In this document: positions 22,042-45,332 of the stretch, in pieces | Position numbering within the stretch: the first letter of the stretch is position 1 | Layout of the letters: each line of letters starts with the position of its first letter | NCBI GenBank assembly: GCA_965214205.1 | Contig: OZ243941.1 | Span: 1,132,515-1,196,514, forward strand | Source of the DNA: Candidatus Poriferihabitaceae bacterium | GTDB taxonomy: Bacteria > Pseudomonadota > Gammaproteobacteria > Arenicellales > Poriferihabitantaceae | Length of the DNA stretch: 64,000 bases | Direction of reading: 5' to 3' | The notes under the pieces: generated by a model | Seen by the model: only the letters and a program-made list of their open reading frames with translations | Database searches by the model: none | Told to the model about the DNA's origin: nothing | Position numbers and translations under genes: made by a program

Positions 22042-22076
22042 TGCCGGATTGCCGGATTGCCGGATTGCCGGATTGC
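22040..22076. repeat. Octanucleotide tandem repeat (ATTGCCGG) x4 plus ATTGC
   Basis: Read directly: ATTGCCGG ATTGCCGG ATTGCCGG ATTGCCGG ATTGC with no mismatches. Equivalent phasing is TTGCCGGA x4 from 22041. Confidence 0.95.
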
Positions 22077-29868: not shown

Positions 29869-32298
29869 ATGAAACCTGAAGCGCAGGTAGTCGTAATTGG
29901 CGGTGGTCTGGTGGGTTGTAGCATCCTCTATCATCTGACCAGGCTGGGTTGGCGGGATGTGGTACTGCTTGAACGCGATGAATTGACTTCCGGTTCCACC
30001 TGGCACGCCGCGGCCGGAATACATGGTCTGCACGACAATAACAACGTGTCCAGAATGCAGTACTACACGATGAATCTGTACCGGCAGCTTGAAAAAGAGA
30101 CCGGTCAGTCCTGCGGCATCCATCAACCCGGTTCGATTTATCTGGCCTGTACCCGGGAACGGGTGCATCAACTCCGTATCCAGGCATCCAAGGCCAGCGC
30201 TTTCAATGCGGAGTTTTACGAGATATCGCCGCGCGAAATCCTCGATCTGAATCCGTTGCTGAATCTGGACAATGTGCTGTGTGCGATGTACGAACCTCTC
30301 GGAGGCCATGTCGATCCTTCCGGAGTGACGTATGCTTATGCCCGGGGCGCCCGGAACAACGGCGCCGGCATCCATCGGTTTACCCCGGTTATCGAAACCA
30401 ACCCGAACCCGGATGGAAGCTGGCAGGTGGTTACTCCCAAGGGCAATATTAAAGCCGATGTTGTGGTCAACGCCGCCGGCCTGTGGGGCCGGGAGGTGGC
30501 CGGACTGGCGGGAATCGATCTGCCTTTGATGCCCATGGAGCATCAGTATTTCGTGACCGAAGACATTCCCGAAATTGCCAGCCTGGACCGGGAGCTTCCG
30601 GCGGTGGCTGACCGGGACAATGAATACTATATGCGTCAGGAGGGCAAGGGGCTGCTGGTCGGGGCGTATGAAAAGGATGGACGATTCTGGTCGGAGAACG
30701 GCACGCCCGCCGATTTTGGTCACGATCTCTTACAGGAGGACCTGGATCGTATCGCGGACAATGTCATGCGCGCCTGTGACCGGGTCTCCGCGCTTGCAGA
30801 AGCCGGGATAAAAAGAGTGATCAATGGCCCCATGATCTGGTCACCGGATTCTTCCGCGTTGCTCGGTCCGGTGCGGGGACTGAAAAACTACTACGTCTGC
30901 AACGGCATTATTCCGGGTTTCAGCCAGAGCGCCGGTCTTGGTAAAACCCTGGCTGAATGGATTGTCGAGGGCGAACCGGAGCTGGATATGTTCGCGTGGG
31001 ATGTCGCCCGTTTTGGCCGGTGGGCGACCAAATCCTGGACTCGGGCGCGGGCGCTCGACAACTACAGCTCACGTTTCCGTATCCATTTCCCGAATGAAGA
31101 GCGCGATGCCGGCCGGCCGCTCAGGAAACGCCCCGTCCATGATCTGCAAAAGTCCATGGGCGCCGTATTCGGTCTTTCTTACGGCTGGGAGCATCCCCAA
31201 TGGTATGCGACAGGCGGTGTGCCGCAACAGGACGAGTTCAGTTTCGAGCGGCCCCGATGGTTCGATATCATGGGTCAGGAGGTTCGGTCCCTGAGAGAGT
31301 CCGTGGGGCTGGTCGATACCTCGAATTTCGCCAAGTACCGGATCACCGGGAAAAACGCTGTCGGCTGGCTGGACCGCATCATCGCGAATCATGTGCCCCG
31401 ACAAAACGGGCGGACCTGCCTGACCCCCCTGTTGAGCCTGAGGGCGGGATTGGCCGGAGATTTCACAGTTGCGCGTCTGTCGGACGAGTCGTTGTTCATG
31501 ATTGGGTCGGGCATCGCCGAGGATTACCATCTGCGGATTTTCGAGCGGTTCCTGCCAGCTCCGGGGGTTCACTTCGAGTGCGTGACCGACGCCATGACCG
31601 GATTCAACATTGCCGGGCCCAATGCCAGACAACTGTTCGAGGAGGTCACCGGCTGCGATTTTTCCAATGATTCCCTGGGTTTCATGCGTAACCGGGTGAT
31701 CGAAATCGACGGCTGTCAGGCGATCATATTGCGGGTTTCATTTACCGGGGACCTGGGTTTCGAGATTTATGTCAGCGAAGAAAACCAATTGTGGCTCTAT
31801 CAGTCCATTCTCGACAAGGGCGCCAAGTACGCGATTAGACCGATTGGCTCGCGCGCCCTGGGTTCGATGAGGATCGAGAAAGGTTACGGCAGTTGGGGGC
31901 GCGAATACTCGCCTGAATGGTCCCCGGTGGAATCCGGACTGGCGGCGCTGGTAAAAACCGATAAACCCGCGTTTCTGGGCCGGGACGCTTACCTGGCGAT
32001 TCGGGACCTGCCGCCAAAGCAGAGGCTTTGCTGCTTCACCATCGAATCGTCTCCCGGCCGCGAGGGGGCGGATGCCTGGGGCGGTGAAGCTATTTTCCAG
32101 TCCGGCAGATATGTCGGTCGAATCACTTCAGGATCGTACAGTTTTACATTCAATACCTCGGTGGCGCTGGGCTACGTTGATGCCGCCTTCGCCGTCCCCG
32201 GTGAAAAATTCGAGGTCGCGATACTGGGTATTCCTCATAAAGCCGAGCTGCTCCCCCGGCCGTTGTTCGACCCGAAGGGCGAGAAGCTCAGGGCCTGA
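29869..32298 (+). CDS. FAD-dependent oxidoreductase fused to GcvT-like folate-binding domain (dimethylglycine/sarcosine dehydrogenase family)
   Basis: 809 aa with an N-terminal VVVIGGGLVGCS dinucleotide fold (DAO domain) and a C-terminal ~400-aa aminomethyltransferase-like domain. Confidence 0.85.
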   Translation: MKPEAQVVVIGGGLVGCSILYHLTRLGWRDVVLLERDELTSGSTWHAAAGIHGLHDNNNVSRMQYYTMNLYRQLEKETGQSCGIHQPGSIYLACTRERVHQLRIQASKASAFNAEFYEISPREILDLNPLLNLDNVLCAMYEPLGGHVDPSGVTYAYARGARNNGAGIHRFTPVIETNPNPDGSWQVVTPKGNIKADVVVNAAGLWGREVAGLAGIDLPLMPMEHQYFVTEDIPEIASLDRELPAVADRDNEYYMRQEGKGLLVGAYEKDGRFWSENGTPADFGHDLLQEDLDRIADNVMRACDRVSALAEAGIKRVINGPMIWSPDSSALLGPVRGLKNYYVCNGIIPGFSQSAGLGKTLAEWIVEGEPELDMFAWDVARFGRWATKSWTRARALDNYSSRFRIHFPNEERDAGRPLRKRPVHDLQKSMGAVFGLSYGWEHPQWYATGGVPQQDEFSFERPRWFDIMGQEVRSLRESVGLVDTSNFAKYRITGKNAVGWLDRIIANHVPRQNGRTCLTPLLSLRAGLAGDFTVARLSDESLFMIGSGIAEDYHLRIFERFLPAPGVHFECVTDAMTGFNIAGPNARQLFEEVTGCDFSNDSLGFMRNRVIEIDGCQAIILRVSFTGDLGFEIYVSEENQLWLYQSILDKGAKYAIRPIGSRALGSMRIEKGYGSWGREYSPEWSPVESGLAALVKTDKPAFLGRDAYLAIRDLPPKQRLCCFTIESSPGREGADAWGGEAIFQSGRYVGRITSGSYSFTFNTSVALGYVDAAFAVPGEKFEVAILGIPHKAELLPRPLFDPKGEKLRA

Positions 32299-32322: not shown

Positions 32323-32871
32323 TCAGACTTTCGCCGCCATCCTGTCGAGCAGGGTATCCGGGTCGGAATGCACCGTATACAGCGCCTGATGTTTGGGTTT
32401 GATGAAACCCTGGCTGACCGTATGGCAGAGGAAATCGTGTAACCGGTCGTAGTATCCGGCCACATTCAAAAGCCCGACCGGTTTCGATTTGCTGTGAATC
32501 TTCAGTTGGGACCAGGTGACGGCCTCGAAAAATTCCTCCAGGGTGCCGAAGCCGCCCGGCAGGGCAATGAATCCATCCGCCAGACTGGCCATTTTCGCTT
32601 TTCGCTGATGCATGTCGTCCATCGTGATCAGTTCGGTCAGGCCGCGATGGGCCACTTCGTCCCTGAACAGGTCTCTGGGAATGACTCCGATGGCTTCGCC
32701 GTTGTTTGCCAGTACCGAGTCCGCTATTTGCCCCATCAGGCCAATGCCGCCGCCGCCGTAAACCAGGCCGATATTGCGCTCGGTCATGGCTCTGGCCAGA
32801 GATTTCGCCGCGTCGCGGTATTCCGGTTGGTTACCGGCTTTGGAACCGCAATATACGCATATTCGTTTCAT
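32323..32871 (-). CDS. LOG-family nucleotide 5'-monophosphate nucleosidase (TIGR00730)
   Basis: 182 aa with GLVYGGGGIGLMG and ALPGGFGTLEEFFE motifs. Confidence 0.85.
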   Translation of the reverse strand: MKRICVYCGSKAGNQPEYRDAAKSLARAMTERNIGLVYGGGGIGLMGQIADSVLANNGEAIGVIPRDLFRDEVAHRGLTELITMDDMHQRKAKMASLADGFIALPGGFGTLEEFFEAVTWSQLKIHSKSKPVGLLNVAGYYDRLHDFLCHTVSQGFIKPKHQALYTVHSDPDTLLDRMAAKV

Positions 32872-33033
32872 TCGCTGTCTGATGGATCGAGATTATCGGG
32901 GTCGGCAAACGGTCGGAATGCCGGGAGCGATTGCTGAAGCGAGTATAGCTGAAATCATTTCTTTTATTTTACAATCTGTCTGATAATCCTCCGTCTGAAA
33001 TTCAGGCATATTCAACTCCAACCGGAAATCATT

Positions 33034-33999
33034 ATGAAGAAAATCGGTTTTATCGGCCTCGGAAATGTCGGTGGCAAACTGGCGGGAAGTTTATTGAGAA
33101 ACGGCGTTGATCTGACGGTCCGGGACCTGGATCGAAGCGCGGCGCAACCGTTCCTCGATGACGGCGCAAAATGGGGGGAAAGTCCACGACAGATGGCCGA
33201 GAGTGTGGATATCCTGATTACCTGCCTGCCGAATCCCGCGGCCAGCGCCGCGGTGATGGAAGCGGATGACGGCGCCTTGCAGGGTCTCGGCAAGGGCCGG
33301 ATATGGGCGGAAATGAGCACCACGGATCAATCCGAGGTATGCCGACTGGGCGCCCAGGTAAAGGCCGTTGGCGCCGAGGCGGTGGATTGTCCGGTTTCGG
33401 GGGGCTGCCATCGCGCGGCATCCGGCAACATTTCGATATTCGCGGGTTGCGAGCGCGATACATTCGAGCGAATCCTGCCTCTGCTTACCACGATGGGGCG
33501 GCGCATCCTGCATACCGGCCCGCTTGGTTCGGCCTCGGTCCTGAAAGTGGTGACCAATTATCTGGCTACCGCCAATCTGTTGTCTGTTTGCGAGGCCCTG
33601 ATTACGTCGAAGGCGGCGGGAATGGACCTGAACACGACGTATGAGGCGATCCGGATTTCCTCCGGAAATTCTTTCGTCCACGAAACCGAAGGCCAGGTTA
33701 TCCTGAACGGCAGCCGGGACATCAGTTTTACGATGGGGCTGGTCTGCAAGGATATCGGGCTGTTCAACGAGATTGCCAAACGAGAAAACATCCCGTTGCA
33801 ACTGTCTCCATTGATGGTGGACATTTTTGAGGACGGCCAGGCGCGGTACGGCGCCCGCGAACTGTCCCCCAATATCATTCGACGCCTCGAAGACGCCACC
33901 GGAATCAACGTCACCGCGCCGGGATTCCCGTCGGAAATGCTGGATGATGAGCCGGAAGAACCCGGTTATGAAGTGCGGGTGGCGACGCCTGATTCGTAA
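33034..33999 (+). CDS. NAD(P)-dependent oxidoreductase, 3-hydroxyisobutyrate dehydrogenase (beta-hydroxyacid DH) family
   Basis: 321 aa with IGFIGLGNVGGKLA Rossmann start and the VDCPVSGG motif. Ends in an acidic C-terminal tail. Confidence 0.85.
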   Translation: MKKIGFIGLGNVGGKLAGSLLRNGVDLTVRDLDRSAAQPFLDDGAKWGESPRQMAESVDILITCLPNPAASAAVMEADDGALQGLGKGRIWAEMSTTDQSEVCRLGAQVKAVGAEAVDCPVSGGCHRAASGNISIFAGCERDTFERILPLLTTMGRRILHTGPLGSASVLKVVTNYLATANLLSVCEALITSKAAGMDLNTTYEAIRISSGNSFVHETEGQVILNGSRDISFTMGLVCKDIGLFNEIAKRENIPLQLSPLMVDIFEDGQARYGARELSPNIIRRLEDATGINVTAPGFPSEMLDDEPEEPGYEVRVATPDS

Positions 34000-34025
34000 A
34001 TTCTGTTGCGGCCGGATTGCGACAA

Positions 34026-36686
34026 CTAAAAATGCAGGGACACATCACGATGTACGGAGCGACAGGCGGCTATCTGTTTGGCTCGGGCTTTTGTGAAACG
34101 GGGTTGCAAGCGGGCGCCTATGGAGCTTTTTATCGTGTTGTCGTAGTCTCGAAGCGCGGGCAGCAATGAGGATGCCTGATCTCTCCATTCGAGTTCTTGC
34201 GCAAACAGCGACAGGGCTTGCGCGTGATGCTGTTTTGCGGATTCGATATCCGGATTGTCTCCTTTCAACGCGCGCCTCGATTTCGAAAGCTGCGATTTGA
34301 TTTTGGAAACGCCGTCGAAATCGCCAAGCCGCGATTCGACCGATGTGATGGCTGCAATCGCTATGGCCGCCCGCTCGTTTTCGATTGATGAAGCCAGGTT
34401 CCGGATGGCGTTTTCCGTACCGGCCAGTTGCGTTTTCTGATCAAGCAGCCGCAACAGTTTTTGCAACGGTTCATAAGCTTCATCCGAGTTGCGGCGATAA
34501 TGGACTCTCGCGCTCTTTTCCGCTTTCGCGAGGTCCTTGTACTTTTGATTTTCCACCGGCCAGTCTGGCGGCAGACGGTCTTCCAGCATTTTACGTTCGA
34601 GTTCAAGTTCAGCCATTTCCGATTCAATGGATTCCAGCCGCTCGGGCTTGGCGTTGGCATTCCGTGACCATTGTCGGTGGTCGTCCTGCAGGGATTTCAT
34701 GCGGTCGTCAATACTCTGGATTCGAATGTTGAGTTGGCGCACTTCGCTGTGCAATGGCTTGTAATCCACTACAAACATCTCCAGGTCCGCCCCTGTCTCC
34801 CGTACATTCTTCACCAGATCGAAGGTATTTCCCGCCAGCCCGAAACTGTCGGTCAGGGAGTCCTGCCAGTCATCCGGCAGGGCGCGTAAATCCATCCCGC
34901 CAATCAGCGCCAGACCATCGAGTATTTCCGTTTCGCGTTCGTCGTATTCCCGGAAAACCTGTTCTTCGAGACAGTATTGCAACTTCGGGTTGACCGGAGG
35001 CGGCGCTGTTTCAGAGGTGAGGTAGGTGCGGGCCGGCATATAGTTGACCAGGCCGGGAGAGTAGCCGACGATGGCGAGTCCGACCAGTTGCAGTATGATG
35101 AACGCGACCGCGCCTTTATAGATCGCCGTGGTCTTGACAGTCGGTGGCGCCACGCCTCTCAGGTAAAACAGGGCAAAGCCGAACGGGGGGGTCAGGAAAG
35201 AGGTCTGAATGTTCAAGCCGATCATCACGCCCAGCCAGACCGCGGTGACATTGGCGGACGGTTCGGCCAACAGGATGGGCGCCACGATAGGAACAACGAC
35301 TACCGCGATTTCGATGAAGTCCAGGAAGAATCCAAGCAGGAATATGACCAGCATAACCACCAGGAACTGGGTCCAGAATCCGCCCGGCAATCCGGTCAGG
35401 AATTCCCGCACCAGATGCTCTCCTCCAAACCCCCGGAACGCCGCCGTCAGCATGGCCGCGCCGATCAGGATGATAAATACCATGGAGGTGGTCTTGGCGG
35501 TGTCGATCATCACACTGACCAGTGTGTCGTTTATTTTCCAGGTTCTCCAGGCGCTCCAGACCACGGCTCCGAGGCAGAAGATGACCGCGATGACCGCCAG
35601 AATAATGCCGAACTGATCTCTTCGATTAGTTATATTCTTTACATTGAGATCAAACAATTGCAGCAGGACCAGAAGACTCAAGGCGGAACCGATGAAAATA
35701 ATTAACGGCGTGTATCTGTTCGCGGGATCGTCCTTCAGCCGGTATCCGCCCATAACAATCGCGCCCACCGCGCCAATCGCGCCGGCCTGATTGACCGTAG
35801 CCACGCCGGTCACAATGGAACCGAGTACCGCAAAAATCAGAAAAAGGGGCGGCGCCAGGGAAATGGCGACCTTGCCGAAGAATTTCCGATCATATTCCCC
35901 ATCGTAGGGAATCGGCGGCGCCGTACCGGGCTTCAGGATTGCCTTGGCCAGAATGTACAACATGTACAACCCGACCAGAATCAGGCCGGGGATGAGCGCC
36001 CCCATGAACATATCCCCGGCGCTGGCCGAGACAATATCGAGTTCGGCGGGCATCGAAAATTCACCGGTCGCCTTTTTGTATTCTTGGGCTCTCAGGGTTC
36101 TTGCCTGGTCCGCCGCGTTGGCCAACTGGTCGGCCAGGATGATCAGTACAATCGAGGGGGGGATGATTTGTCCGAGGGTGCCTGAAGCGCAAATGGTTCC
36201 GGTGGCTATTGGCTGCGAGTAATTGTTGCGCAGCATGGCCGGCAATGAGATGAGTCCCATCGCAATCACGGTGGCGCCCAGAATGCCGGTTGTCGCAGCC
36301 AGCAACGCTCCAACGAAAACCACGGAAATTCCCAACCCGCCGGGCACCGGCCCGAATAATTGGGCCATCGCCACCAGCAGGTCTTCGGCGATTTTGGAGC
36401 GCTGCAGCATGATTCCCATGAACACGAATAAGGGAATTGCGATCAGCGTATCGCGCTCAACCTCCCAGTACAGGCTGCGAAAATTGGTCACTCCCGCTGT
36501 CAGCCACTGTACCGGGCCATCCTGGGCGAAATAGGCGCCCGGGTCTCCCGCGAACAGGTAACCGAAAATCGCGGCAAGACCAATCGCTCCAATGGCAGAG
36601 CCGGGCAAGGCGAAAGCCACCGGGAATCCCGAGCTCAATGAAATGATCATCAGGAGGATGAGAACTCCCAGGAAAACCAGTTCCAC
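34026..36686 (-). CDS. dctM: TRAP transporter large permease (DctM, COG4664-type) with 330-aa soluble C-terminal extension
   Basis: 886 aa with GTG start. Residues 1-~556 are a polytopic DctM core (FVFMGIMLQRS, GQIIPPSIVLII, TPPFGFALFYLRG). Residues ~557-886 (34029-35018) have no hydrophobic segment and are E/R/K/L/Q-rich. Confidence 0.85.
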   Translation of the reverse strand: MELVFLGVLILLMIISLSSGFPVAFALPGSAIGAIGLAAIFGYLFAGDPGAYFAQDGPVQWLTAGVTNFRSLYWEVERDTLIAIPLFVFMGIMLQRSKIAEDLLVAMAQLFGPVPGGLGISVVFVGALLAATTGILGATVIAMGLISLPAMLRNNYSQPIATGTICASGTLGQIIPPSIVLIILADQLANAADQARTLRAQEYKKATGEFSMPAELDIVSASAGDMFMGALIPGLILVGLYMLYILAKAILKPGTAPPIPYDGEYDRKFFGKVAISLAPPLFLIFAVLGSIVTGVATVNQAGAIGAVGAIVMGGYRLKDDPANRYTPLIIFIGSALSLLVLLQLFDLNVKNITNRRDQFGIILAVIAVIFCLGAVVWSAWRTWKINDTLVSVMIDTAKTTSMVFIILIGAAMLTAAFRGFGGEHLVREFLTGLPGGFWTQFLVVMLVIFLLGFFLDFIEIAVVVVPIVAPILLAEPSANVTAVWLGVMIGLNIQTSFLTPPFGFALFYLRGVAPPTVKTTAIYKGAVAFIILQLVGLAIVGYSPGLVNYMPARTYLTSETAPPPVNPKLQYCLEEQVFREYDERETEILDGLALIGGMDLRALPDDWQDSLTDSFGLAGNTFDLVKNVRETGADLEMFVVDYKPLHSEVRQLNIRIQSIDDRMKSLQDDHRQWSRNANAKPERLESIESEMAELELERKMLEDRLPPDWPVENQKYKDLAKAEKSARVHYRRNSDEAYEPLQKLLRLLDQKTQLAGTENAIRNLASSIENERAAIAIAAITSVESRLGDFDGVSKIKSQLSKSRRALKGDNPDIESAKQHHAQALSLFAQELEWRDQASSLLPALRDYDNTIKSSIGARLQPRFTKARAKQIAACRSVHRDVSLHF

Positions 36687-37720
36687 TATGCGGGCTCCCC
36701 TGTGGTCACGGCTTCCTCCCGGCTACTGTTCTGGTAAACGGAAATATTGGACAGCGTGAAACTGATAAACTGAACGGCCATGCTGACGGCGAATATCAGC
36801 AGGTAAGCGGCCATCAGATACTTGGTATACATACCGAACCCGCTTTGGGAGATTTCAAAGCTGAGCAGCGGGCTATTTATGATGCTGCCTTTCCCCGACA
36901 TGCCCTGGATCAGAATATTCCAGCAAAGCGGCAGTCCCAGCAAGAGGGAGCCCAGCGAGTTGGTCAGCGCCTTGCCACGTTCGCTGAAGTTGGCGTAAAG
37001 CACATCGACCCGGACATGCCCATCCTTGACCAGTGTATAGGCGCTGGCGAACAGGAACAGGCCGGCATACCAGAATCGCACCAGATCCCCCATGAATGCC
37101 TGCTCATAAGAAAAGACAAAGCGGGTAATCACGATCAGGAATTCCGCCGCGACAATCAGCAGGGCCAGCCAGATGAATCCCAGTGTCCGGGTAAAGCTGG
37201 CGATGACAATGGAGAGCAGGATTAATGGAAAGTGGATATAACTGCCTCGAAAAATGGGACGCCCCAACTGGATGGTTAAATATTCTCCTGCGATCGCGGG
37301 TAAAAATCCTTCAACCCTTACAAATGAAATCAGCATATCAGCCAGGCCAACCAGGAACACCGCCCAGAATGCGGCCCGGACGATGAATGCGGAAATGCGG
37401 TTGTACAGTTCGGCGTCCTCGTCCAGTTTCCGCGCGCGGGTTTTGAGGACCAGAGAGAGGATGCCCACAATCGTGACCAGTGAAGCGACAAGCTGTATCC
37501 AGCCCCGGATCACATCGGAGCCGGTCAGTTCCCGGACAGAGCCCTCTGCGCCGAATAATCCGAGGTGAGAGAGGAAGGCCCGTGTTCCCGGCCACTTGAA
37601 CCAGTGGATCAACGTGTTGTCAATCAGAAACAGGAACAACGCAACAATCATGGACGCGGCCAGCGCCCGAAACCCGATGTTCAGACTAAATAGCGGATGT
37701 GAAGAATGAGAGTTCTTCAC
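36686..37720 (-). CDS. dctQ: TRAP transporter small permease (DctQ, COG4665-type), double-length
   Basis: 344 aa. The C-terminal half carries the DctQ signature (DGHVRVDVLYANFSERGKA), preceded by ~170 aa with extra TM segments. Its stop overlaps the dctM GTG by 1 nt. Confidence 0.75.
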   Translation of the reverse strand: MKNSHSSHPLFSLNIGFRALAASMIVALFLFLIDNTLIHWFKWPGTRAFLSHLGLFGAEGSVRELTGSDVIRGWIQLVASLVTIVGILSLVLKTRARKLDEDAELYNRISAFIVRAAFWAVFLVGLADMLISFVRVEGFLPAIAGEYLTIQLGRPIFRGSYIHFPLILLSIVIASFTRTLGFIWLALLIVAAEFLIVITRFVFSYEQAFMGDLVRFWYAGLFLFASAYTLVKDGHVRVDVLYANFSERGKALTNSLGSLLLGLPLCWNILIQGMSGKGSIINSPLLSFEISQSGFGMYTKYLMAAYLLIFAVSMAVQFISFTLSNISVYQNSSREEAVTTGEPA

Positions 37721-37851
37721 AATTAACGAAAAATGGAGTTGTGCACTTCGGAGCCTGTGATCAAATCCGGGCGAAGTGGATCAGGGCGGCCCGTGTTGCA
37801 AACAGGAAACGGAGCATACACTCCGTTTCCTGTGGCCGGAGCCGAAATTTG

Positions 37852-38943
37852 CTATACGCCGAGAACCCTGTTTCTTTGTCTCAGGTATTCCTGGTCGGCG
37901 ATTTTTGCCCAGCCGCCGACATCGGCTCGCGCCTGGACAAAGCTCTCGTGGACCCGTCTTGCGAGGTCACTGTGTTCCACGGTTTCCGCGAAAACCTCTT
38001 CCGCCGCTTCACCGAACGAGTCATAAATGTCATCACTGAATCTTTCCAGCTGGACACCCTGATCATTGATCAGGCGGGCGAGTGAAGAACCGTTGTTTGC
38101 ATTGAATTCGGCCATCATCACATCATTTTCCATCGAAGCGGCCGCCTCGATCATCACTCTGTCCGAATTCGACAATCCTTCCCAGAAATCCTTGTTGATT
38201 CCCGAGGCCAGCATTGGCCCGGGTTCATGCATTCCGGGATAGTAATAGTAGCGGGCGGCTTCATAGAATTTCATGGCCTCATCGTTCCACGGGCCAACCC
38301 ATTCAGTGGCGTCAATCGCGCCTGAAATCAGGTTCTCGTAAATCTGACCGCCGGGCAGGGAAACCGGGGACGCTCCCAGTTTTGCCAGTACATCGCCGCC
38401 CAGGCCCGGAATCCGCATTTTCAGACCCTTGAAGTCATCGGCCGAGTTCATTTCCTTACGGAACCATCCGCCCATTTGTACGCCGGTGTTGCCGCACATC
38501 AGGTTTTTCAATCCAGACTCGCCCGCAAGCTCGTCCCAGAGCTCCTGCCCTCCGCCAAATCGGATCCAGGCATTCATCTCGGTATAGGTCAGGCCGAAAG
38601 GCACGGCGGTAAAGTAGGCCCAGGCCGGGTGTTTGCCTTTCCAGTAATAGTCGGCGGCATGGTAGATCTGCGCGTTGCCGGACGCCACTTCGTCGAACGA
38701 ATCGAATGCCCCGACCCGCTCACCCGCGGCGAAGTATTCGACTGCGAAGCGGCCATCGCTCATGTCGCTCAGTCTTTGGGCGAATCGTTGCGCCCCGGTG
38801 CCCAGACCCGGAAAGTCCCGCGGCCAGGTCGAAACCACTGCGATTTCAATACGCTCCTGCGCGATAGCGGGAGCCGCCAGGGTTGAAGCTCCGGCTGCTG
38901 CCGCAGCAGCGACTCCGCTTTTTAACAGTTCACGACGTTTCAT
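37852..38943 (-). CDS. dctP: TRAP transporter substrate-binding protein (DctP-like, COG4663-type) with Tat signal
   Basis: 363 aa with twin-arginine signal MKRRELLKSG...APAIAQ. Also carries the QMGGWFRKE and ATEWVGPWND motifs of this SBP subgroup. Confidence 0.85.
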   Translation of the reverse strand: MKRRELLKSGVAAAAAAGASTLAAPAIAQERIEIAVVSTWPRDFPGLGTGAQRFAQRLSDMSDGRFAVEYFAAGERVGAFDSFDEVASGNAQIYHAADYYWKGKHPAWAYFTAVPFGLTYTEMNAWIRFGGGQELWDELAGESGLKNLMCGNTGVQMGGWFRKEMNSADDFKGLKMRIPGLGGDVLAKLGASPVSLPGGQIYENLISGAIDATEWVGPWNDEAMKFYEAARYYYYPGMHEPGPMLASGINKDFWEGLSNSDRVMIEAAASMENDVMMAEFNANNGSSLARLINDQGVQLERFSDDIYDSFGEAAEEVFAETVEHSDLARRVHESFVQARADVGGWAKIADQEYLRQRNRVLGV

Positions 38944-39104
38944 AAGAATATCCTCAAGTTATGGTTCATTTGATCTTTCTGATTCTGGTTTTCTACCCGG
39001 AGTATGTGTTTGTCCAAACCGGGGATGTGCCGGTAGTATCGCCGATTTGTTGAGGACGGTAAAGTAGTTATGGTCAATGCCGATATATTTCACGTCGCCC
39101 CCGG

Positions 39105-40199
39105 TCATACTCTGGAAATAGTCATGTAAGCGTGCACATAATCCATGCCGTGGCCTGTCGGATCCGCCATGACCCGTTGATGGTAGAGTTGATAGTAATC
39201 CTCGATCAGTCGCTGGCGTTCTTCAATGGAGCGATTGGCGTCCAGGCCGGCGTAAAAAATGCTTTGATTCCAGCTTCTGATCGTCGGGATCAGACCATCC
39301 GCGAACTTTTTCAGATCCTTGTCCACCTTGAATTGTTCGGCGAAAGGGCAGGGAACCACACCGGTCTCAATGCTGTCCAGTCGCAGCCCCGCCTGATAAC
39401 ATGCATTGTCCGGGTCGGTCAGCGGCCCGGTGAATTCATCCACGGTACGGTAGTACTGGGGAAGGGTCATATTCCGGTATTCCCGCTCCGATACCCGGCC
39501 CTGCTCAACCAGATCTCTCCAGATCGCGTTGAAGGTATCGAACATATTCACGCCGCCGGTATTGCCGAGATAGCGGCCCTGCTGGTCACGGCAAAAGTTG
39601 GCCAGCGCCATCTTGCCGCCGGGTCGCAACTCTCTCGCCCGGCATTGCAGAATGGTTTCCCAGTCCTGTTCGGCCTGCCGGGCAAAGGCTTCCAGTTCCG
39701 GGCCGCGGGCGCCGACCATGTGTACATGGTCGTTGATATTGCATGGCTTGTCGGATAACCAGTGCATGGCGGTCGCGGAGAAACAGAAATCAAGGGAATG
39801 GTCAGGCGCCGATTGTTGATAGAACGATGTGCCGGAAACCAGCGGGAAGACACGTTCGAACTGGCCGAGCCAGGTTTCGAATTGTGTGCGCCCGTGAACG
39901 ATACTGACCAGCGCGTTAAAGTCATTCGCCGGCTGATCCGCATAGATGACCGTAATCTGTACGTCCGGCTTCATTTTCTGTATTTGTTCGATTGCCCGGC
40001 GAATCATGTCCAGCGAAGTGCCCGCGTCCGCGCATCCGGTATCGGCCAGCGTGAACCGGTCAGAGGAAATGTCGATGTTCCTGATCGCGTCCAGAACACG
40101 GGGCGTGGCGATATCAATGACATCCTTTGCGCCTTTCGTAGCCAGCGAGTACAGCCCGCCTTCCGACATGGTAACGTTGTCCGCCTGGAGGTTTTTCAT
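39105..40199 (-). CDS. SAM-dependent methyltransferase, SABATH-like (Methyltransf_7-type)
   Basis: Start set at MKNLQADNVTM (ATG 40199). MSEGGLYSLATKGAKDV...LADTGCADAGTSL...YADQPANDFNAL...VSGTSFYQQSAPDHSLDFCFSATAMHWLS is collinear with the plant SABATH motifs (GG..SYA, ADLGCS.G, NDLP.NDFN, PGSFY..LFP..S, SLHWLS). Confidence 0.65.
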   Translation of the reverse strand: MKNLQADNVTMSEGGLYSLATKGAKDVIDIATPRVLDAIRNIDISSDRFTLADTGCADAGTSLDMIRRAIEQIQKMKPDVQITVIYADQPANDFNALVSIVHGRTQFETWLGQFERVFPLVSGTSFYQQSAPDHSLDFCFSATAMHWLSDKPCNINDHVHMVGARGPELEAFARQAEQDWETILQCRARELRPGGKMALANFCRDQQGRYLGNTGGVNMFDTFNAIWRDLVEQGRVSEREYRNMTLPQYYRTVDEFTGPLTDPDNACYQAGLRLDSIETGVVPCPFAEQFKVDKDLKKFADGLIPTIRSWNQSIFYAGLDANRSIEERQRLIEDYYQLYHQRVMADPTGHGMDYVHAYMTISRV

Positions 40200-40204
40200 T
40201 GTAG

Positions 40205-40765
40205 TCAGACTCCGATAAGGGTAAGAAATTCTGAACGGGTGCGATGGCTGGAGCGGAAGGTGCCCAGCATCATGGAGGTTTTCATCGTCGAGTTCTGTTT
40301 CTCGACACCCCGCATCATCATGCAGAAATGTTTCGCTTCTATGATTACGCCGACTCCCCTGGCGCCGGTCACTTTTCCGATGGCGTGTGCGATTTGCTCG
40401 GTCAGGTTTTCCTGGATTTGCAGTCTGCGGGCGTACATGTCGGTGATTCGGGCCATCTTCGACAATCCGATCACCTTGCCGTTCGGCACATAAGCGATGT
40501 GGCATTTGCCGACAAAAGGCAGCAGGTGATGTTCACACAAGGAATACAATTCAATGTCCTTGACAATCACCATTTGGTCATTGTCTGACTCAAAAATCGC
40601 GTTGTTCACGACCTCATCGAGATTTTGCTGATAGCCCCGGGTCAGATATTGCAGCGCCTTGGCCGCTCGCATCGGGGTATCGGACAGTCCCTGGCGTTCC
40701 GGGTCTTCTCCAATCAGGTCGAGGAGAGAATGATAATGTTCGGCTATTTTTTCGGAATGATTCAT
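40205..40765 (-). CDS. folE: GTP cyclohydrolase I
   Basis: 186 aa with [10 protein letters not shown] and HFCMMMRGV motifs and full-length FolE similarity. Confidence 0.95.
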
Positions 40766-40915
40766 GGTTGTTCAATCGACATTGGCATGGGTTACATGCC
40801 GGAATTGTATCATTGGCTTACCGGTTGTGCGGTAACGCCCGGACCGGTTCGGCGATCCCCGCCCGCGCCCTGATTTGTCATATACTGTAGTGTATGTTGA
40901 TTCGGGGTTACAGAT

Positions 40916-41746
40916 ATGGTTGATGAAGTGACCGGGGGCCTGCGCAAGATGAAGGTTGAAGCAACCCGTCCCGTGAGTTATCAGATGCCGGTGGGGGACG
41001 CGCTACTGGCCGTGAACGAGCAACTCGGGCGCACCCTGGAATTGCGGTATACCGGCAATATCCATTGTATTGGATGCGGCAGAAAAACCAGAAAGAGTTT
41101 TTCGCAGGGGTACTGCTACCCGTGCTTCAAGTCCCTGGCCGAATGCGACCTGTGCATCATGAAGCCGGAGACCTGTCATTTTGCCCAGGGAACCTGCCGC
41201 GACGAGGAATGGGCAAAAAGTCATTGCATGCAGGATCACTATGTCTATCTCGCAAACTCGTCCGGATTGAAGGTCGGAATCACCCGGGGCACGCAAATCC
41301 CGGTACGCTGGATTGATCAGGGGGCGTCCCAGGCTATCGCCATGTTCAAAATCAGGAATCGGCTCCATTCCGGGCTGCTCGAAGTGACACTGAAGAAGCG
41401 GGTGAGCGACCGTACCGACTGGCGCAGGCTTCTGAAGGGGCTGCCGCAAGAGCGGGACATGGTTCTGGCGCGTGACCGGCTGATCGGTTCGGTCCAATCC
41501 GAACTGGAAGCGCTGAAGCAATCGAACCCCGGCCTTGAGTGGGAGCAATTGGATGACGCCCCCATTCAACTGACCTATCCGGTAGACCGGTATCCCGACA
41601 GGATTGTCAGCCTGAATCTGGATAAAACCCCGGAGATTTCAGGAACATTGATGGGAATAAAGGGCCAGTATCTGATTCTCGACTGCGGCGTGATCAACAT
41701 CCGCAAGTTCGCGGGTTACGAGGTTAGCGTCCGTCTCCCGAATTGA
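40916..41746 (+). CDS. DUF2797 domain-containing protein (Cys-rich, putative zinc-binding)
   Basis: 276 aa with IHCIGCGRKTRKSFSQGYCYPCFKSLAECDLCIMKPETCH, the Cys cluster characteristic of DUF2797 as I remember it. Confidence 0.6.
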   Translation: MVDEVTGGLRKMKVEATRPVSYQMPVGDALLAVNEQLGRTLELRYTGNIHCIGCGRKTRKSFSQGYCYPCFKSLAECDLCIMKPETCHFAQGTCRDEEWAKSHCMQDHYVYLANSSGLKVGITRGTQIPVRWIDQGASQAIAMFKIRNRLHSGLLEVTLKKRVSDRTDWRRLLKGLPQERDMVLARDRLIGSVQSELEALKQSNPGLEWEQLDDAPIQLTYPVDRYPDRIVSLNLDKTPEISGTLMGIKGQYLILDCGVINIRKFAGYEVSVRLPN

Positions 41747-41777
41747 CAGGACATGGGGTAACCGGATTCTGGCAACC

Positions 41778-43652
41778 GTGAATCGTCACATAAACTCGTT
41801 GGTCCATTCGTCGCGGAAAACCCGGTTTGCCGTTTTCCTGACCCTGGATGTCGCGCTGATATTGCTGGGTCTGTGGGCGTCGTATTTCCTGAGGATGGAT
41901 ACCTTCGTCATTACCGATTTCCGTTTGGCTCTACTGGGGCTGGCCGCTCCGGTCATCGCCATCCCGGTATTCATCCGCAACGGGGTTTATCGCGCCATCA
42001 TCCGTTATCTGACTGCGGATGTTATCTGGACCATACTGCGCGCGGTCACGATCTATTGTGTCCTGTGGGCGTTGGTGGCGCTGTTTTCCGGTATTTTTGA
42101 GAAACCCCGTTCCATTATATTGATCAACTGGGGAGTCAGTCTGATATTGATTGGCGGAGCCCGGTTCCTGGCCTGGTACCTGACCAATCTGTATTTTATC
42201 GCGGCTCATAAAAGCAGGGGGGATACCCATGTCAAAAAGGTTCTGATCTACGGCGCCGGGGAGGCCGGGATCCAGATTGCCGCGGGATTGTCGTCCTACC
42301 GCGGGACCGAAGTCGTCGGCTTTATCGACGATTCCAGTCTGCTGCAGAACCAGTTGATTCAGGGGAAGCGGGTCTATCCATCGGAAGACCTGTCCCGGCT
42401 GGTGGCCGCTCTGGAAGTCTCTGAAATACTGCTGGCGATGCCGTCGGTTTCCCGTGGCCGGAGAGTCGAGATATTGTCCGCGCTGGAGCCCCTGCCGATT
42501 CCGGTCCGGACATTACCCGATATTGCCTTGATCGCGTCCGGCAGGGTCAAGGTTCAGGATATCCGGGAGATCCGGGTGGACGATCTTCTGGGCCGGGAAT
42601 CCGTCTCGCCTGATGAAACCCTGATGCGCCGGAATATCGATAATCGTGTGGTCATGGTAACCGGCGCCGGCGGTTCCATCGGCGCCGAGTTGTGCCGTCA
42701 GATTTCCCTGTTGAATCCCAGGAAGATCATCCTGTTCGAGCAGAGCGAATTCAATTTATACAAAATCGACCGTGAACTGAGAAAACGCGGGGTCGAGTTT
42801 GTCCCGGAGCTGGGTTCGGTTTCGGATACGGATCATATTGCCGAGCGCTGCAAAACGCTGGAAGTGGATACGATTTTCCACGCCGCGGCTTACAAGCATG
42901 TACCCCTGGTGGAGATGAATCCTGCCATCGGGGTCAAGAACAATGTGTTTGGAACCTACGCTACTGCGATGGCCGCGATTCGCGCCAATGTGAAAAGTTT
43001 TGTGCTGATTTCTACCGACAAGGCCGTTCGCCCCGCCAATGTGATGGGCGCGACCAAGCGTTTCTCCGAGTTGATTCTCCAATCCATCAACGCGCAGGGC
43101 CACGCCGGGCAGACCCGGTTCATTATCGTTCGGTTCGGTAATGTGATTGATTCGTCGGGGTCCGTGATTCCGTTGTTCCGGGACCAGATCAACATGGGCG
43201 GGCCGGTGACCGTGACCCATGAGGAAGTCACCCGCTATTTCATGACGATCCCGGAAGCCGCCCAACTGGTCATCCAGGCCGGGGCCATGGGCAACGGCGG
43301 AGAGGTATTTGTGCTGGACATGGGCGAATCGGTTAGAATCCATGACCTCGCGGTCAAGATGATCAAGTTGAGCGGGCTTGGCCTCAAGGATGCCGGGCAT
43401 CCCGATGGTGATATCGAAATAGAATTCTCCGGATTGAGGCCGGGCGAGAAGCTGCATGAGGAATTATTGATCGGCGACAATGTGGCGTCCACGCAGCATG
43501 ACCGCATCATGAGCGCGAGTGAAAAGTTCCTGCCGTGGCGGGAGATACAGGAAAAACTGGATCAGTTGGAGATTCAGGTTCGATCAGGCAACACCGAACA
43601 GATCCGACAAATACTGGCAACCGTCGTCGAAGGGTATTCCGCCAATCAATAG
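41778..43652 (+). CDS. Membrane-anchored NDP-sugar 4,6-dehydratase/epimerase (CapD/WbpM/PglF-like polysaccharide biosynthesis protein)
   Basis: 624 aa with GTG start, N-terminal TM segments, the Rossmann motif VMVTGAGGSIGAEL and the AAAYKHVPLVE catalytic Y-x3-K. Confidence 0.85.
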   Translation: MNRHINSLVHSSRKTRFAVFLTLDVALILLGLWASYFLRMDTFVITDFRLALLGLAAPVIAIPVFIRNGVYRAIIRYLTADVIWTILRAVTIYCVLWALVALFSGIFEKPRSIILINWGVSLILIGGARFLAWYLTNLYFIAAHKSRGDTHVKKVLIYGAGEAGIQIAAGLSSYRGTEVVGFIDDSSLLQNQLIQGKRVYPSEDLSRLVAALEVSEILLAMPSVSRGRRVEILSALEPLPIPVRTLPDIALIASGRVKVQDIREIRVDDLLGRESVSPDETLMRRNIDNRVVMVTGAGGSIGAELCRQISLLNPRKIILFEQSEFNLYKIDRELRKRGVEFVPELGSVSDTDHIAERCKTLEVDTIFHAAAYKHVPLVEMNPAIGVKNNVFGTYATAMAAIRANVKSFVLISTDKAVRPANVMGATKRFSELILQSINAQGHAGQTRFIIVRFGNVIDSSGSVIPLFRDQINMGGPVTVTHEEVTRYFMTIPEAAQLVIQAGAMGNGGEVFVLDMGESVRIHDLAVKMIKLSGLGLKDAGHPDGDIEIEFSGLRPGEKLHEELLIGDNVASTQHDRIMSASEKFLPWREIQEKLDQLEIQVRSGNTEQIRQILATVVEGYSANQ

Positions 43653-43728: not shown

Positions 43729-44418
43729 TCACACCTTCTGGTAGACGCAGAACCAGCCTTCGGGTTGGTTGCCTTCATAGTATTGACCCATTTCCAGGCT
43801 CAGGCGGCGCAGTCGGGCCTGGTTTTCCAGTTGTGTGAACCGGTCGGCGAATCCCATGCTTTGCCACAGGTCCTTGTGGACTGTGCAGGCGAGAATGCCG
43901 CCGGGTTTCAGTATCCTGCAAATTTCATCGAGCGGCTCCGGGCCGACATGACCGTGGGTGAAGGTGCCCGACGAAATGACGCCGTCAAAGCTGTCGCTTT
44001 CATAGCCCAGCGGCAGATTGATGTCGCCGACCTTCAGACCCTTGTATAATCCCTTGCGGTTCGCCACCTCGACCATTTCCTGTGACAAATCAATGCCGTG
44101 CAGGTTGGTGAACCCCTGTTCCGCCAGCGTATATACGGTGAGGCCCGTGCCGCATCCGAGATCAAGTATTTTCGCGTTCCTGTCATCGAGTCGCGCCATC
44201 ATTTCCCCGGCGATCAACGCAGGCGAGACATAGCTCAATCCCTCGACCATCTGCTGATCGTATTCCCGCGCCCATTTGGCGTAGAAAAGCTTCATGCTCT
44301 CGCCGTCTTCCAGATTATAGGCTTCGGTGACGAAATTCCCGGGACCCTTTGGGGTTTCTCCGGTTGTTTCCGGAACCGGCGGAGTCTCGTTCTGGTCGGC
44401 AGGGTCTTTTTGGGCCAT
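43729..44418 (-). CDS. Class I SAM-dependent methyltransferase
   Basis: 229 aa with the ILDLGCGTGL motif I and the LKPGGILA post-motif. Confidence 0.8.
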   Translation of the reverse strand: MAQKDPADQNETPPVPETTGETPKGPGNFVTEAYNLEDGESMKLFYAKWAREYDQQMVEGLSYVSPALIAGEMMARLDDRNAKILDLGCGTGLTVYTLAEQGFTNLHGIDLSQEMVEVANRKGLYKGLKVGDINLPLGYESDSFDGVISSGTFTHGHVGPEPLDEICRILKPGGILACTVHKDLWQSMGFADRFTQLENQARLRRLSLEMGQYYEGNQPEGWFCVYQKV

Positions 44419-44429
44419 CGGATATCGGT

Positions 44430-45332
44430 TCAGGATATTTTGGTGAGTGGATTGTTGCCGGATTTCAGGACCATGGCAACCCCGATTACGCAGGCGACAA
44501 TTCCAACAATCGAAACCAGCCCGAATGTCTCGTCGAAAAATATCCAGGCCTGGACCACTACAAAAGGCGGTACCAGATAAAACAGCCCCGCCACTTTCCC
44601 TGCTTCACCGGTGCGAATCAGCCAGAGCAGGAGTATGGAGGTACCTGCTGACAATACCAGGACCAGCCAGGCCAGGGCCAGAACGAACGGCAGCGTCCAG
44701 TCGACTTCGCGGGATTCCAGCGAAAATGAGAGAGCGCCTATGACCACGGTATTGACCAGGAACTGGAAGCAGACACTCGGCAACAGATCATATTCCCCGC
44801 AGAACTTTTTCTGGTAGACCGTGCCGGCGGAGATTGCGAGCAGACTGACCGCTGTGAAAACCAGCCCGGCATAATGGACCGCTCCGGTGTCGATCCCCTG
44901 CTGGGTGATGACAATGATGATACCGATAAATCCAATGACCAACCCTGCAATTTTCAGGAGGGTAATGGATTCATTCAGCCAGCGGGCCGCGATAAACACC
45001 GTTACCAGAGGTTGCAGGCCAATGACGATTGCGGTCATCGAGGAAGGGAACCCGGCCTTGATGGCGCTGAAAACCCCTCCGAGATAAATGCAGTGGATCA
45101 GAATGGCGACGACCGCCATGTGCCCGTAATCCACCATCCGCTTCGGCCAGGTTACCTCGAAAAACGGAACCAGCGAGAACAGTATCAGGGTCGCTATCAG
45201 CATCCGGATACCAAGAAAAGTGAAGGGCTCGGCGCTCGGCAAGCCGAATTTTGCGCTGATAAAACCGGTGCTCCACAAGAATACGAACAACAGCGGAAGC
45301 CCTGTTCTTATCGCGCGGGTTCGAAATGACAT
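44430..45332 (-). CDS. DMT-superfamily (EamA-like) transporter
   Basis: 300 aa with ten hydrophobic segments and a duplicated EamA-like layout. Confidence 0.8.
   Translation of the reverse strand: MSFRTRAIRTGLPLLFVFLWSTGFISAKFGLPSAEPFTFLGIRMLIATLILFSLVPFFEVTWPKRMVDYGHMAVVAILIHCIYLGGVFSAIKAGFPSSMTAIVIGLQPLVTVFIAARWLNESITLLKIAGLVIGFIGIIIVITQQGIDTGAVHYAGLVFTAVSLLAISAGTVYQKKFCGEYDLLPSVCFQFLVNTVVIGALSFSLESREVDWTLPFVLALAWLVLVLSAGTSILLLWLIRTGEAGKVAGLFYLVPPFVVVQAWIFFDETFGLVSIVGIVACVIGVAMVLKSGNNPLTKIS

Follow-up and report, generated by a model that had tools for sequence, protein, structure and literature searches.

The gene that follows folE by 5 nt in the 64,000-nt stretch of Candidatus Poriferihabitaceae DNA analysed here (the window) encodes a SAM-dependent methyltransferase belonging to an uncharacterised bacterial clade of the SABATH family. 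We consider it probable that its pairing with folE is a lineage-specific juxtaposition and no dedicated pathway unit, that the recurring unit consists of the methyltransferase and a TakP-type TRAP transporter, and that a 2-oxo-, 2-hydroxy- or amino-acid-derived monocarboxylate is methylated. Genes once lying between folE and the methyltransferase would have been lost or moved in one shallow clade, bringing the methyltransferase gene to within 5 nt of the folE end, where transcription from the folE promoter probably reads through into it. A small monocarboxylate of one of these three kinds, imported by the TRAP transporter or made in the cell, would then be methylated with SAM by the SABATH-fold enzyme. 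What remains after the folE link is set aside is a well-conserved clade repeatedly linked to a TRAP transporter among the most abundant in the marine setting. With its substrate identified, the family, which is familiar almost exclusively from hormone and alkaloid metabolism in plants, would gain a function in bacteria, and light might be shed on the modification of imported keto acids by marine bacteria or on their production of a methylated osmolyte.

The methyltransferase and its family

The methyltransferase gene is located on the minus strand at 39105-40199, with its ATG at 40199 and its stop codon ending at 39105, and encodes a protein of 364 aa. A mechanical list of open reading frames also offers a longer version (39105-40505, 466 aa) that overlaps folE, but homologues begin no more than ~10 residues away from the 40199 ATG, which makes 364 aa the correct length. 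Assignment of the product to the SABATH (Methyltransf_7) family, as proposed in the original prediction, was confirmed by profile, fold and motifs. PF03492 matches aa 44-258 at 131.5 bits, well over its cutoff of 29.8, and no NCBIfam model matches the protein. The AlphaFold2 model (pLDDT 81, pTM 0.82) predicts a class I Rossmann-type core with the SABATH alpha-helical cap, and a Foldseek comparison of this model with the PDB returned SABATH enzymes as all of the best 29 matches (TM 0.67-0.84), followed by generic class I methyltransferases with TMq at most 0.46 and TMt up to 0.63. The family motifs DTGCADAGTS (aa 53), YADQPANDFN (aa 86), GTSFY (aa 123) and SATAMHWLS (aa 141), which include the conserved SAM and HWLS motifs, can be aligned with the salicylate, indole-acetate and loganate methyltransferases as well as with a mycobacterial enzyme described below.

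Bacterial members of the family, described as rare in the original prediction, proved in the searches to be less rare than that. At E<=1e-3 the methyltransferase matches 1463 proteins, PF03492 is present in all 120 of the homologues listed among the matches, and a profile search gathered 2999 representatives of 50%-identity clusters. Within a species-representative genome collection, confirmed relatives are encoded in 366 stretches, mostly in marine Gammaproteobacteria, including symbionts of sponges and gutless worms, plus SAR324. Orthologues from the marine Gammaproteobacteria and SAR324 are 57-91% identical. Base composition around the gene is flat (GC 0.53-0.59 over 30-46 kb) and holds no trace of recent transfer in that interval.

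Several known enzymes were considered as identities and rejected. The methyltransferase matches PF03492 only, which sets it outside the marine S-methyltransferases MddH, MddM1/2, DsyB/DSYB, DsyG/DSYE and TpMMT; of these, DsyB/DSYB is presumably of the O-methyltransferase type (PF00891). In the literature, MddH is a UbiE-family protein (COG2226), MddM1 belongs to UbiG and MddM2 to UbiE, and the DsyG domain, PF08241, is 31% identical to TpMMT, which, like DSYE, is presented as a relative of DsyG. The OPCMT carboxyl methyltransferases (2023, PNAS) are described as distinct from SABATH and were likewise discarded. Publications on bacterial PF03492/Methyltransf_7 proteins, bacterial SABATH enzymes and homarine biosynthesis genes yielded nothing on the clade of the window methyltransferase.

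The TRAP transporter and its linkage to the methyltransferase

Immediately downstream of the methyltransferase, TRAP transporter genes extend over 34026-38943 on the same minus strand. The gene at 37852-38943 encodes a 363-aa solute-binding protein of the DctP family, TakP subfamily (PF03480, 176.9 bits), whose best solved match is TakP (2hzk, 257.7 bits). Alignment places this DctP in the TakP-type (COG4663) fold with 6/6 of the Na+/pyruvate ligand residues of TakP identical (Y100, Q156, R177, E214, W215 and E240; PMC1839085), and these six are invariant in 18 DctP orthologues. The transporter is thus predicted, from its sequence, to be a TakP-type Na+-dependent importer of 2-oxo acids. A marine relative close to the window DctP, 7ug8, is an alpha-ketovalerate complex according to the title of its PDB entry. 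The small membrane subunit (DctQ-like, 36686-37720, minus strand) is unusually long at 344 aa, with a PF04290 match (43.7 bits) that covers aa 194-323 only, and the gene is conserved beside dctP in 118 related loci. The large subunit (DctM-like, 34026-36686, minus strand; PF06808, 214.1 bits) has 886 aa, a length kept at about that value in about 105 loci; its hydrophobic segments stop near aa 548 and a hydrophilic C-terminal tail of ~330 aa lies beyond.

The recurrence of this pairing was assessed in a tblastn survey of the methyltransferase that gave 80 genome loci, 54 of which had enough flanking sequence to be informative. In 41 of the 54, a TakP-type dctP lies within 10 kb of the methyltransferase gene, for which we put the chance expectation below 1% (a rough estimate that assumes a genome of ~3 Mb with one copy of the locus). 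The linkage takes at least five gene arrangements spread over the neighbour-joining tree. Among them are MT>PQM, as in the window; PQM>MT, found in SAR324 and others with gaps of ~40-130 nt; lpxB>MT <ETHE1-rhodanese NERD> PQM; and a divergent orientation of methyltransferase and TRAP genes (L053, L106). No other conserved enzyme neighbour of the methyltransferase emerged in 160 loci. The recurrent neighbours in these loci are housekeeping or clade-specific, namely lpxB, gnnA/B-like genes, dnaE, rnhB, xni, pntAB, flagellin-like genes, the ETHE1-rhodanese fusion, NERD and DUF1318; a number of them were named from the sequences without a Pfam check. From the linkage we infer that the methyltransferase acts on a compound transported by the TRAP system.

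A less probable alternative is that the methyltransferase is independent of both neighbours in function and acts on an endogenous metabolite, for instance on a carboxylic acid such as a fatty acid; it would then lie near the TRAP genes through inherited synteny, with no function in common. The nearest solved homologue is a fatty-acid O-methyltransferase, and in different clades the gene lies among housekeeping genes (lpxB, folE, xni). The TRAP system is also much commoner than the methyltransferase, which is often missing beside it: among 24 informative dctP loci from metagenomes, just 7 have the methyltransferase, 13 of the 54 methyltransferase loci have no TRAP genes, and the dctP pocket residues are identical in loci with and without the methyltransferase. 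In addition, dctP may have a promoter of its own. The spacer between the methyltransferase and dctP holds a promoter-like element at 39035-39063 on the minus strand (TTTACC, 17 nt, GATACT) within a block conserved in 7/7 aligned close relatives; its core, AAATCGGCGATACTA, is found upstream of dctP in only 8 loci, all of them close. This candidate promoter fits 8 of 12 consensus positions, which is under the threshold of the scan tool. Promoter and terminator scans of 33800-41200 gave counts at or under shuffled expectation and no promoter-like site on the minus strand, and an Rfam scan of 33000-42000 (E<=1) gave no regulatory RNA match. In the lpxB clade a gene on the opposite strand separates the methyltransferase from the TRAP genes and, together with the element before dctP, this means that co-regulation of the two is not assured. 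Against independence, however, stand the survival of the linkage through its several arrangements and across phyla, with dctPQM>MT in the SAR324 loci, and its frequency relative to chance. The mycobacterial homologue is also a distant one, with 23% identity, and the methyltransferase family has many invariant polar residues. Finally, the amino-acid and 2-oxo-acid chemistry of a group of fused relatives agrees with the predicted class of TRAP ligand.

In these fused relatives, methyltransferase domains ~35% identical to the window enzyme are fused to, or encoded beside, an ELFV-type (Phe/Leu dehydrogenase-like) domain and a monomeric sarcosine oxidase/NikD-like domain. Examples include Shewanella surugensis WP_248942631.1, the red alga Porphyridium purpureum KAA8497474.1 and proteins from metagenomes. 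The fused methyltransferase domains score ~300 bits against the family profile, with the 35% identity holding over the full length, and share with the window enzyme the invariant residues Y17, T21, D26, H146, W147, C284, P285, R308, W310 and H356, which are predicted to surround the active site in both subfamilies. Position 24 differs, being Cys in the fused subfamily and Ala in the window methyltransferase. The fused proteins carry amino-acid-oxidising domains of their own, whereas the window enzyme lies beside a TRAP importer, and no ELFV or DAO homologues occur in the window or in the methyltransferase-TRAP loci. A literature search found no published function for multi-domain ELFV/sarcosine-oxidase-like/Methyltransf_7 proteins. 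As judged from their domains, these relatives lend independent support to a keto-acid or amino-acid theme. At ~35% identity, they may use a substrate other than that of the window methyltransferase.

The same relatives suggest a more specific scheme, which we regard as unlikely, in which the TakP-type TRAP transporter works with the methyltransferase as an "import-and-methylate" module whose product, made from a 2-oxo- or 2-aza-carboxylate of external origin, is an onium-type solute with full methylation. This scheme draws on the co-occurrence of domains and on the roles of NikD, which makes picolinate, and of coffee trigonelline synthase, which is a SABATH N-methyltransferase. The fused proteins (Phe/Leu-dehydrogenase-like, sarcosine-oxidase/NikD-like and methyltransferase domains) would be its self-sufficient version, and one of their gene arrangements, seen on two contigs with the same protein, has a BCCT (betaine-type) carrier behind it. 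They would lead from lysine through piperideine-2-carboxylate and picolinate to N-methylpicolinate (homarine); the enzyme of the window would add the N-methyl group to picolinate, or to a related acid, brought in from outside. A variant by S-methylation, with 4-methylthio-2-oxo- or 2-hydroxybutyrate as substrate in a route to DMSP, is just as conceivable.

folE and its junction with the methyltransferase

The folE gene is found at 40205-40765 on the minus strand, its TGA stop at 40207-40205, and encodes a GTP cyclohydrolase I of 186 aa. The product matches PF01227 at 249.5 bits, the equivalog-level model TIGR00063 at 247.9 bits (cutoff 181.6) and NF006825 at 266.3 bits, and contains the zinc-site motifs CEHH (aa 77) and HFCM (aa 146), which together identify it as FolE. 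No second folE occurs in the 64-kb window, and this one is probably a housekeeping enzyme of the ordinary type. As originally described, folE and the methyltransferase are co-directional and separated by 5 nt: the junction, read from the sequence at 40200-40213 on the minus strand, consists of the spacer 40200-40204 and a Shine-Dalgarno-like GGAG at 40213-40210, which falls within the 3' end of folE and 10 nt before the methyltransferase ATG. Co-transcription in the source genome is plausible because the gap is so short and holds no terminator-like site. Such probable co-transcription counts against the main reading in that it leaves room for a lineage-specific link to folE. A 5-nt intergenic gap is nevertheless not, by itself, evidence for a shared pathway.

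Comparison with relatives showed how narrow the adjacency is. A folE gene lies directly next to the methyltransferase in only 6 of the 54 informative loci (L001-L005 and L013; methyltransferase identity 81-91%), which in the neighbour-joining tree make up one shallow clade, whose members are sponge-associated Arenicellales. In the remaining loci, folE is either missing or found 1.1-8.4 kb upstream. The sister clades have the order folE>xni>(0-3 genes)>methyltransferase, and at the level of the order the arrangement is DUF2797< folE> xni> (0-3 other genes)> MT> dctP> dctQ> dctM. In most other clades folE is not found within 10 kb, and there are clades in which the methyltransferase gene stands behind lpxB or dctM instead. 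Counted over the 54 loci, folE occurs within 10 kb in 25, always upstream and on the same strand; this amounts to a loose but non-random synteny, and all 25 come from one order-level group. Whatever its distance to the methyltransferase gene, folE in the relatives keeps the company of DUF2797 and xni. The DUF2797 gene of the window (40916-41746, plus strand; PF10977, 325.8 bits) is divergent from folE, as it is in several relatives, and is context only, outside the methyltransferase-TRAP module.

The wider neighbourhood was also searched for a dedicated pterin or 7-deazapurine cluster. No pterin, folate or queuosine genes (PTPS/queD, queC, queE, folB/K/P) lie within ~10 kb of the pair in the window. 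The genes found there instead encode the TRAP subunits, LOG, 3-hydroxyisobutyrate-dehydrogenase-like and dimethylglycine-dehydrogenase-like proteins, DUF2797, CapD, Methyltransf_11, EamA, MFS and an AMP-binding protein. A dedicated unit, in which FolE would convert GTP to dihydroneopterin triphosphate and the methyltransferase would act on a pterin- or purine-derived product, can point to the tight co-directional junction with its ribosome-binding motif, to the six close relatives that hold the adjacency and to the purine N-methyltransferases of the SABATH family (the structural matches include 2efj, 2eg5, 6lyh and 8uzd), but is very improbable given the single shallow clade, the presence of xni with as many as three unrelated genes between the pair in its sister clades, the clades that have no folE nearby, the missing tailoring genes, the standard nature of the sole folE and a nearest methyltransferase relative that is a bacterial carboxylate enzyme and not a purine N-methyltransferase. 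The methylated pterin or purine product once proposed for a folE-driven pathway is not upheld, and the pathway is hence of no importance. For the TRAP-linked methyltransferase, the most likely substrate would be a small carboxylate derived from a 2-oxo or amino acid, rather than a pterin or purine.

Comparison with known transporters and SABATH enzymes

Among solved binding proteins, 7ug8, 5cm6, 4pet and 4yic are related to the window DctP; we take 4yic to be a Bordetella TakP-like protein solved with picolinic acid, and it is not used here as evidence. Compared with TakPQM of Rhodobacter sphaeroides (2hzk, 2hzl), the window DctP retains the Na+- and pyruvate-binding residues and differs in the lining of the pocket, where the alignment, read against PMC1839085, gives F40W, I47L, V97A and V245L. 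The membrane subunits of the window, at 344 and 886 aa, are oversized relative to those of TakPQM, and the 886-aa subunit has the C-terminal tail described above.

For the methyltransferase, the "plant-type" label of the original prediction is misleading, the closest solved relative being a bacterial one, the mycobacterial fatty-acid O-methyltransferase (FAMT) 5f2k, which we take to be that of Mycobacterium marinum. The plant SABATHs, which include the carboxyl methyltransferases of salicylate, indole-acetate and loganate and the N-methyltransferases of the xanthosine, theobromine and caffeine type, belong to the same Pfam family (PF03492) and share the motifs DxGCxxGxxS, DQPxNDFN, SFY and HWLS with the window enzyme. 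Their structures have the fold predicted by its model (TM 0.67-0.80), and the sequence match is confined to roughly the first 260 residues, with no more than 87 bits. FAMT (5f2k, 5f2n, 5f2o), likewise a bacterial SABATH, can be aligned over its full length, helical cap included: 5f2k scores 124.6 bits against the family profile of the methyltransferase, and the three structures superpose on the predicted model with Foldseek TM values of 0.80-0.84 and an rmsd of ~3 Å.

The substrate site can be compared in the same way. In the salicylate methyltransferase (1m6e), Gln25 and Trp151 presumably hold the carboxylate of the substrate. Trp151 corresponds to the invariant W147 of the window enzyme and Gln25 to Ala24, which sits within the nearly invariant GAKD motif of the clade. 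The salicylate-type anchor, which comprises both residues, is therefore not retained, and with Ala24 in the place of Gln25, carboxyl O-methylation is not to be assumed. By our alignment, the mycobacterial enzyme has Gln at this position. FAMT and the window methyltransferase thus have the SAM motifs and the Trp of xWLS in common and differ in the residue at the Gln25 position, in most of their sequence, and in context, which is lipid metabolism for FAMT and a TRAP transporter for the enzyme described here.

The folE–methyltransferase junction

On the minus strand, folE, encoding GTP cyclohydrolase I (40205-40765, 186 aa; TGA stop at 40207-40205), is followed after a 5-nt spacer (40200-40204) by the gene for a SABATH-like methyltransferase of 364 aa (39105-40199; ATG at 40199, stop codon ending at 39105), with a GGAG motif (40213-40210) 10 nt upstream of the ATG. 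Direct reading of the sequence therefore bears out the 5-nt gap of the original prediction, and this spacing makes co-transcription likely in this genome. A mechanical ORF list also holds an alternative 466-aa ORF reaching up to 40505, and the shorter form is taken as the gene because homologues start within about 10 residues of the 40199 ATG. The folE product is an equivalog-level GTP cyclohydrolase I (PF01227, 249.5 bits; TIGR00063, 247.9 bits with a cutoff of 181.6) containing CEHH and HFCM zinc-site motifs.

Conservation of the pair was assessed in 80 genome loci with 10-kb flanks, in which homologues of the window proteins were placed by tblastn and genes were called as greedy ORFs. Across these 80 loci, folE abuts the methyltransferase gene solely in the closest relatives (L001-L005 and L013, 81-91% identity), which group as one shallow clade when the methyltransferase is placed in a neighbour-joining tree. 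In the clades that come next, folE is found on the same strand at a distance of 1.1-8.4 kb upstream; the interval holds xni (named from its flap endonuclease-like sequence) and as many as three unrelated genes, among them those for an 839-aa protein and DUF1318. Most other clades have no folE within 10 kb. Among the 54 loci with sufficient flank, folE is adjacent in 6 and within 10 kb in 25, and a TRAP binding-protein gene is within 10 kb in 41; locus counts such as these are phylogenetically non-independent and less informative than the number of distinct arrangements. The 64-kb window contains one folE and no xni. No pterin, folate or queuosine genes were found within about 10 kb of the pair, where the neighbours are TRAP subunits, LOG, 3-hydroxyisobutyrate-dehydrogenase-like and dimethylglycine-dehydrogenase-like proteins, DUF2797, CapD, Methyltransf_11, EamA, MFS and an AMP-binding enzyme. 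The original prediction had drawn from the adjacency, as speculation, a methylated pterin- or purine-derived product and had named a pairing not kept in relatives as the outcome that would tell against it. This is the outcome obtained; with the gene content of the neighbourhood, it leaves such a product unsupported, and the adjacency of folE is probably not a pathway link.

DUF2797 (zinc-ribbon-like; 40916-41746, plus strand) is a more persistent partner of folE than the methyltransferase, being its divergent neighbour here and in L001, L004, L005, L008, L021, L026 and L029, and lying within about 4 kb of it in further loci. A Methyltransf_11 protein (229 aa), unrelated to the SABATH-like enzyme, is encoded directly upstream of an EamA-family transporter (43729-45332, minus strand), and this pair is also found near folE in L004, L015 and L017.

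The methyltransferase and its family

The assignment to SABATH is well founded. The enzyme scores 131.5 bits with PF03492 (Methyltransf_7), whose cutoff is 29.8, and none of the NCBIfam models matches it. When a profile built from 17 orthologues was searched against solved structures, the best relative was a mycobacterial fatty-acid O-methyltransferase (5f2k; 124.6 bits, full length), with plant SABATH enzymes ranking behind it (at most 87 bits over roughly the first 260 residues). An AlphaFold2 model (pLDDT 81, pTM 0.82) is closest to SABATH folds, with TM scores of 0.82-0.84 to 5f2k and 0.67-0.80 to the plant enzymes; for generic class I methyltransferases the TMq does not exceed 0.46. The SAM and family motifs read DTGCADAGTS, YADQPANDFN, GTSFY and SATAMHWLS. 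By profile and predicted structure, this is a genuine SABATH-fold enzyme from a bacterial branch of the family.

Bacterial members had been expected to be rare, which proved not to be the case: homologues at E<=1e-3 number 1463 proteins (the best 120 of these at 57-91% identity), 366 stretches coding for a relative were confirmed in a collection of species-representative genomes, and a profile search of sequences clustered at 50% identity returned 2999 cluster representatives. Most of the loci with the best matches belong to Arenicellales, Candidatus Poriferihabitaceae (sponge symbionts), Granulosicoccaceae, Thiolinea, the Olavius Gamma 3 symbiont and SAR324.

The TRAP transporter as a recurrent partner

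Downstream of the methyltransferase, on the same strand, lie dctP (37852-38943), encoding the TRAP binding protein, a dctQ-like gene (36686-37720, 344 aa) and a dctM-like gene (34026-36686, 886 aa). TRAP genes recur with the methyltransferase throughout its tree, in no fewer than five arrangements. These include the methyltransferase gene ahead of dctPQM with spacers of 100-500 nt; the reverse order, seen in SAR324 and several Gammaproteobacteria, in which dctPQM comes first and the gap is about 40-130 nt; lpxB followed by the methyltransferase gene, with an opposite-strand ETHE1-rhodanese gene and a NERD gene between these and dctPQM; and two divergent forms (L053, L106). In the window, the spacer before dctP holds a promoter-like TTTACC-17-GATACT (39063-39035, minus strand) conserved in close relatives alone; only 8 of these close relatives keep the block AAATCGGCGATACTA ahead of dctP.

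The closest solved relative of DctP is TakP of Rhodobacter sphaeroides (2hzk, 257.7 bits), in which Arg177 and Tyr100 are ligands of the pyruvate carboxylate and Gln156, Glu214, the Trp215 carbonyl and Glu240 are Na+ ligands bridging to the 2-oxo group (PMC1839085). All six residues (6/6) are identical in the window protein, and the pocket lining differs by F40W, I47L, V97A and V245L. Another close solved relative, from marine Synechococcus, has bound alpha-ketovalerate and calcium. We infer that the ligand is a small 2-oxo monocarboxylate, or another compound chelating a cation next to its carboxylate.

In the reverse direction, metagenome loci were taken around dctP orthologues (72-83% identity); of 80 such loci only 16 contained the methyltransferase, or 7 of the 24 with adequate flanks. 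Orthologues of dctP are very abundant in marine data, with at least 8000 matches and one cluster on 504 contigs, including Tara samples, and loci with and without the methyltransferase show no variation in the pocket residues. On these observations the methyltransferase is an accessory that only some copies of a common transporter have next to them, and the transporter is not dedicated to it.

Several features of these loci can be recorded here. Marine metagenomic dctP orthologues (P0281-P0400, 75-93% identity) are usually annotated at source as 'mannitol/chloroaromatic compound' transport. Both membrane subunits are oversized: the Pfam DctQ match spans aa 194-323 alone, and the DctM-like protein, whose length of about 886 aa is kept in about 105 related loci, has a hydrophilic C-terminal tail of about 330 aa (about 34029-35021) matching no Pfam family. 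In the lpxB clade (L042 6399-8154 and some 20 loci like it, e.g., L055, L060, L064, L070, L075), the genes that separate the methyltransferase from the TRAP operon are an opposite-strand one for a metallo-beta-lactamase-rhodanese fusion resembling persulfide dioxygenase and one for a NERD-domain protein; many host lineages are sulfur oxidisers. Past the TRAP operon, a set common to the closest relatives alone comprises a dimethylglycine/sarcosine-dehydrogenase-like protein (DAO and GCV_T, 809 aa; 29869-32298, plus strand), a LOG-family protein (32323-32871, minus strand) and a 3-hydroxyisobutyrate-dehydrogenase-like protein (33034-33999, plus strand). A 1714-aa ORF (22057-27201, plus strand), whose sole Pfam match is a Calx-beta domain, may encode a large protein with a surface or adhesion role.

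Candidate substrates and known enzymes

The profile search ranks, next after the orthologues, multi-domain proteins of three Pfam architectures (ELFV-dehydrogenase, DAO and Methyltransf_7; DAO and Methyltransf_7; ELFV and Methyltransf_7), found in Shewanella surugensis (WP_248942631.1), the red alga Porphyridium purpureum (KAA8497474.1) and metagenomes. The enzymes are fused or adjacent (L161 5676-9188; L162 7084-11906; L163; L165), an unfused ELFV part being the gene immediately upstream, and a BCCT betaine-type carrier follows in two contigs with an identical protein (L162, L163). The ELFV part is nearest Phe/Leu/Trp dehydrogenases (96 bits), and the DAO part is nearest monomeric sarcosine oxidase (99 bits), NikD (92 bits) and N-methyltryptophan oxidase (81 bits). 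Their Methyltransf_7 domains are 35% identical to the window enzyme and share invariant Y17, T21, D26, H146, W147, C284-P285, R308, W310 and H356, with Cys rather than Ala at position 24. These enzymes are candidates for a pathway that yields a methylated solute derived from an amino acid. Fusion to enzymes interconverting amino acids and 2-oxo acids is independently in keeping with the 2-oxo-acid importer next to the stand-alone enzyme. Specificity probably differs within the branch, as other relatives belong to different small-molecule clusters.

We propose that folE is a bystander and that the methyltransferase would be SAM-dependent and methylate a small 2-oxo-, 2-hydroxy- or amino-acid-derived carboxylate, most likely one that the neighbouring TakP-type TRAP system provides. 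As a whole this is the reading we favour, with some reserve; that the substrate is the very compound imported by the transporter is a tentative suggestion, short of probable.

Comparison can also be made with salicylate carboxyl methyltransferase, where from the 1m6e structure we take Trp151 to be a substrate contact and Gln25 the carboxylate anchor. The former is kept as W147, whereas the latter aligns with Ala24, within a nearly invariant GAKD motif, and this alignment gives no ground for taking carboxyl O-methylation as given. Without the Gln anchor, and with Arg308 invariant, there would be room for N-, S- or C-methylation. An onium-solute route would lead from picolinate to homarine in one version and through S-methylation toward DMSP in another. 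It is unlikely, the first version being suggested by the NikD-like partner, the BCCT carrier and the SABATH precedent for pyridine-carboxylate N-methylation, coffee trigonelline synthase. Overall, the methyltransferase counts as an uncharacterised addition to a known enzyme family, with a suggestive linkage to a transporter.
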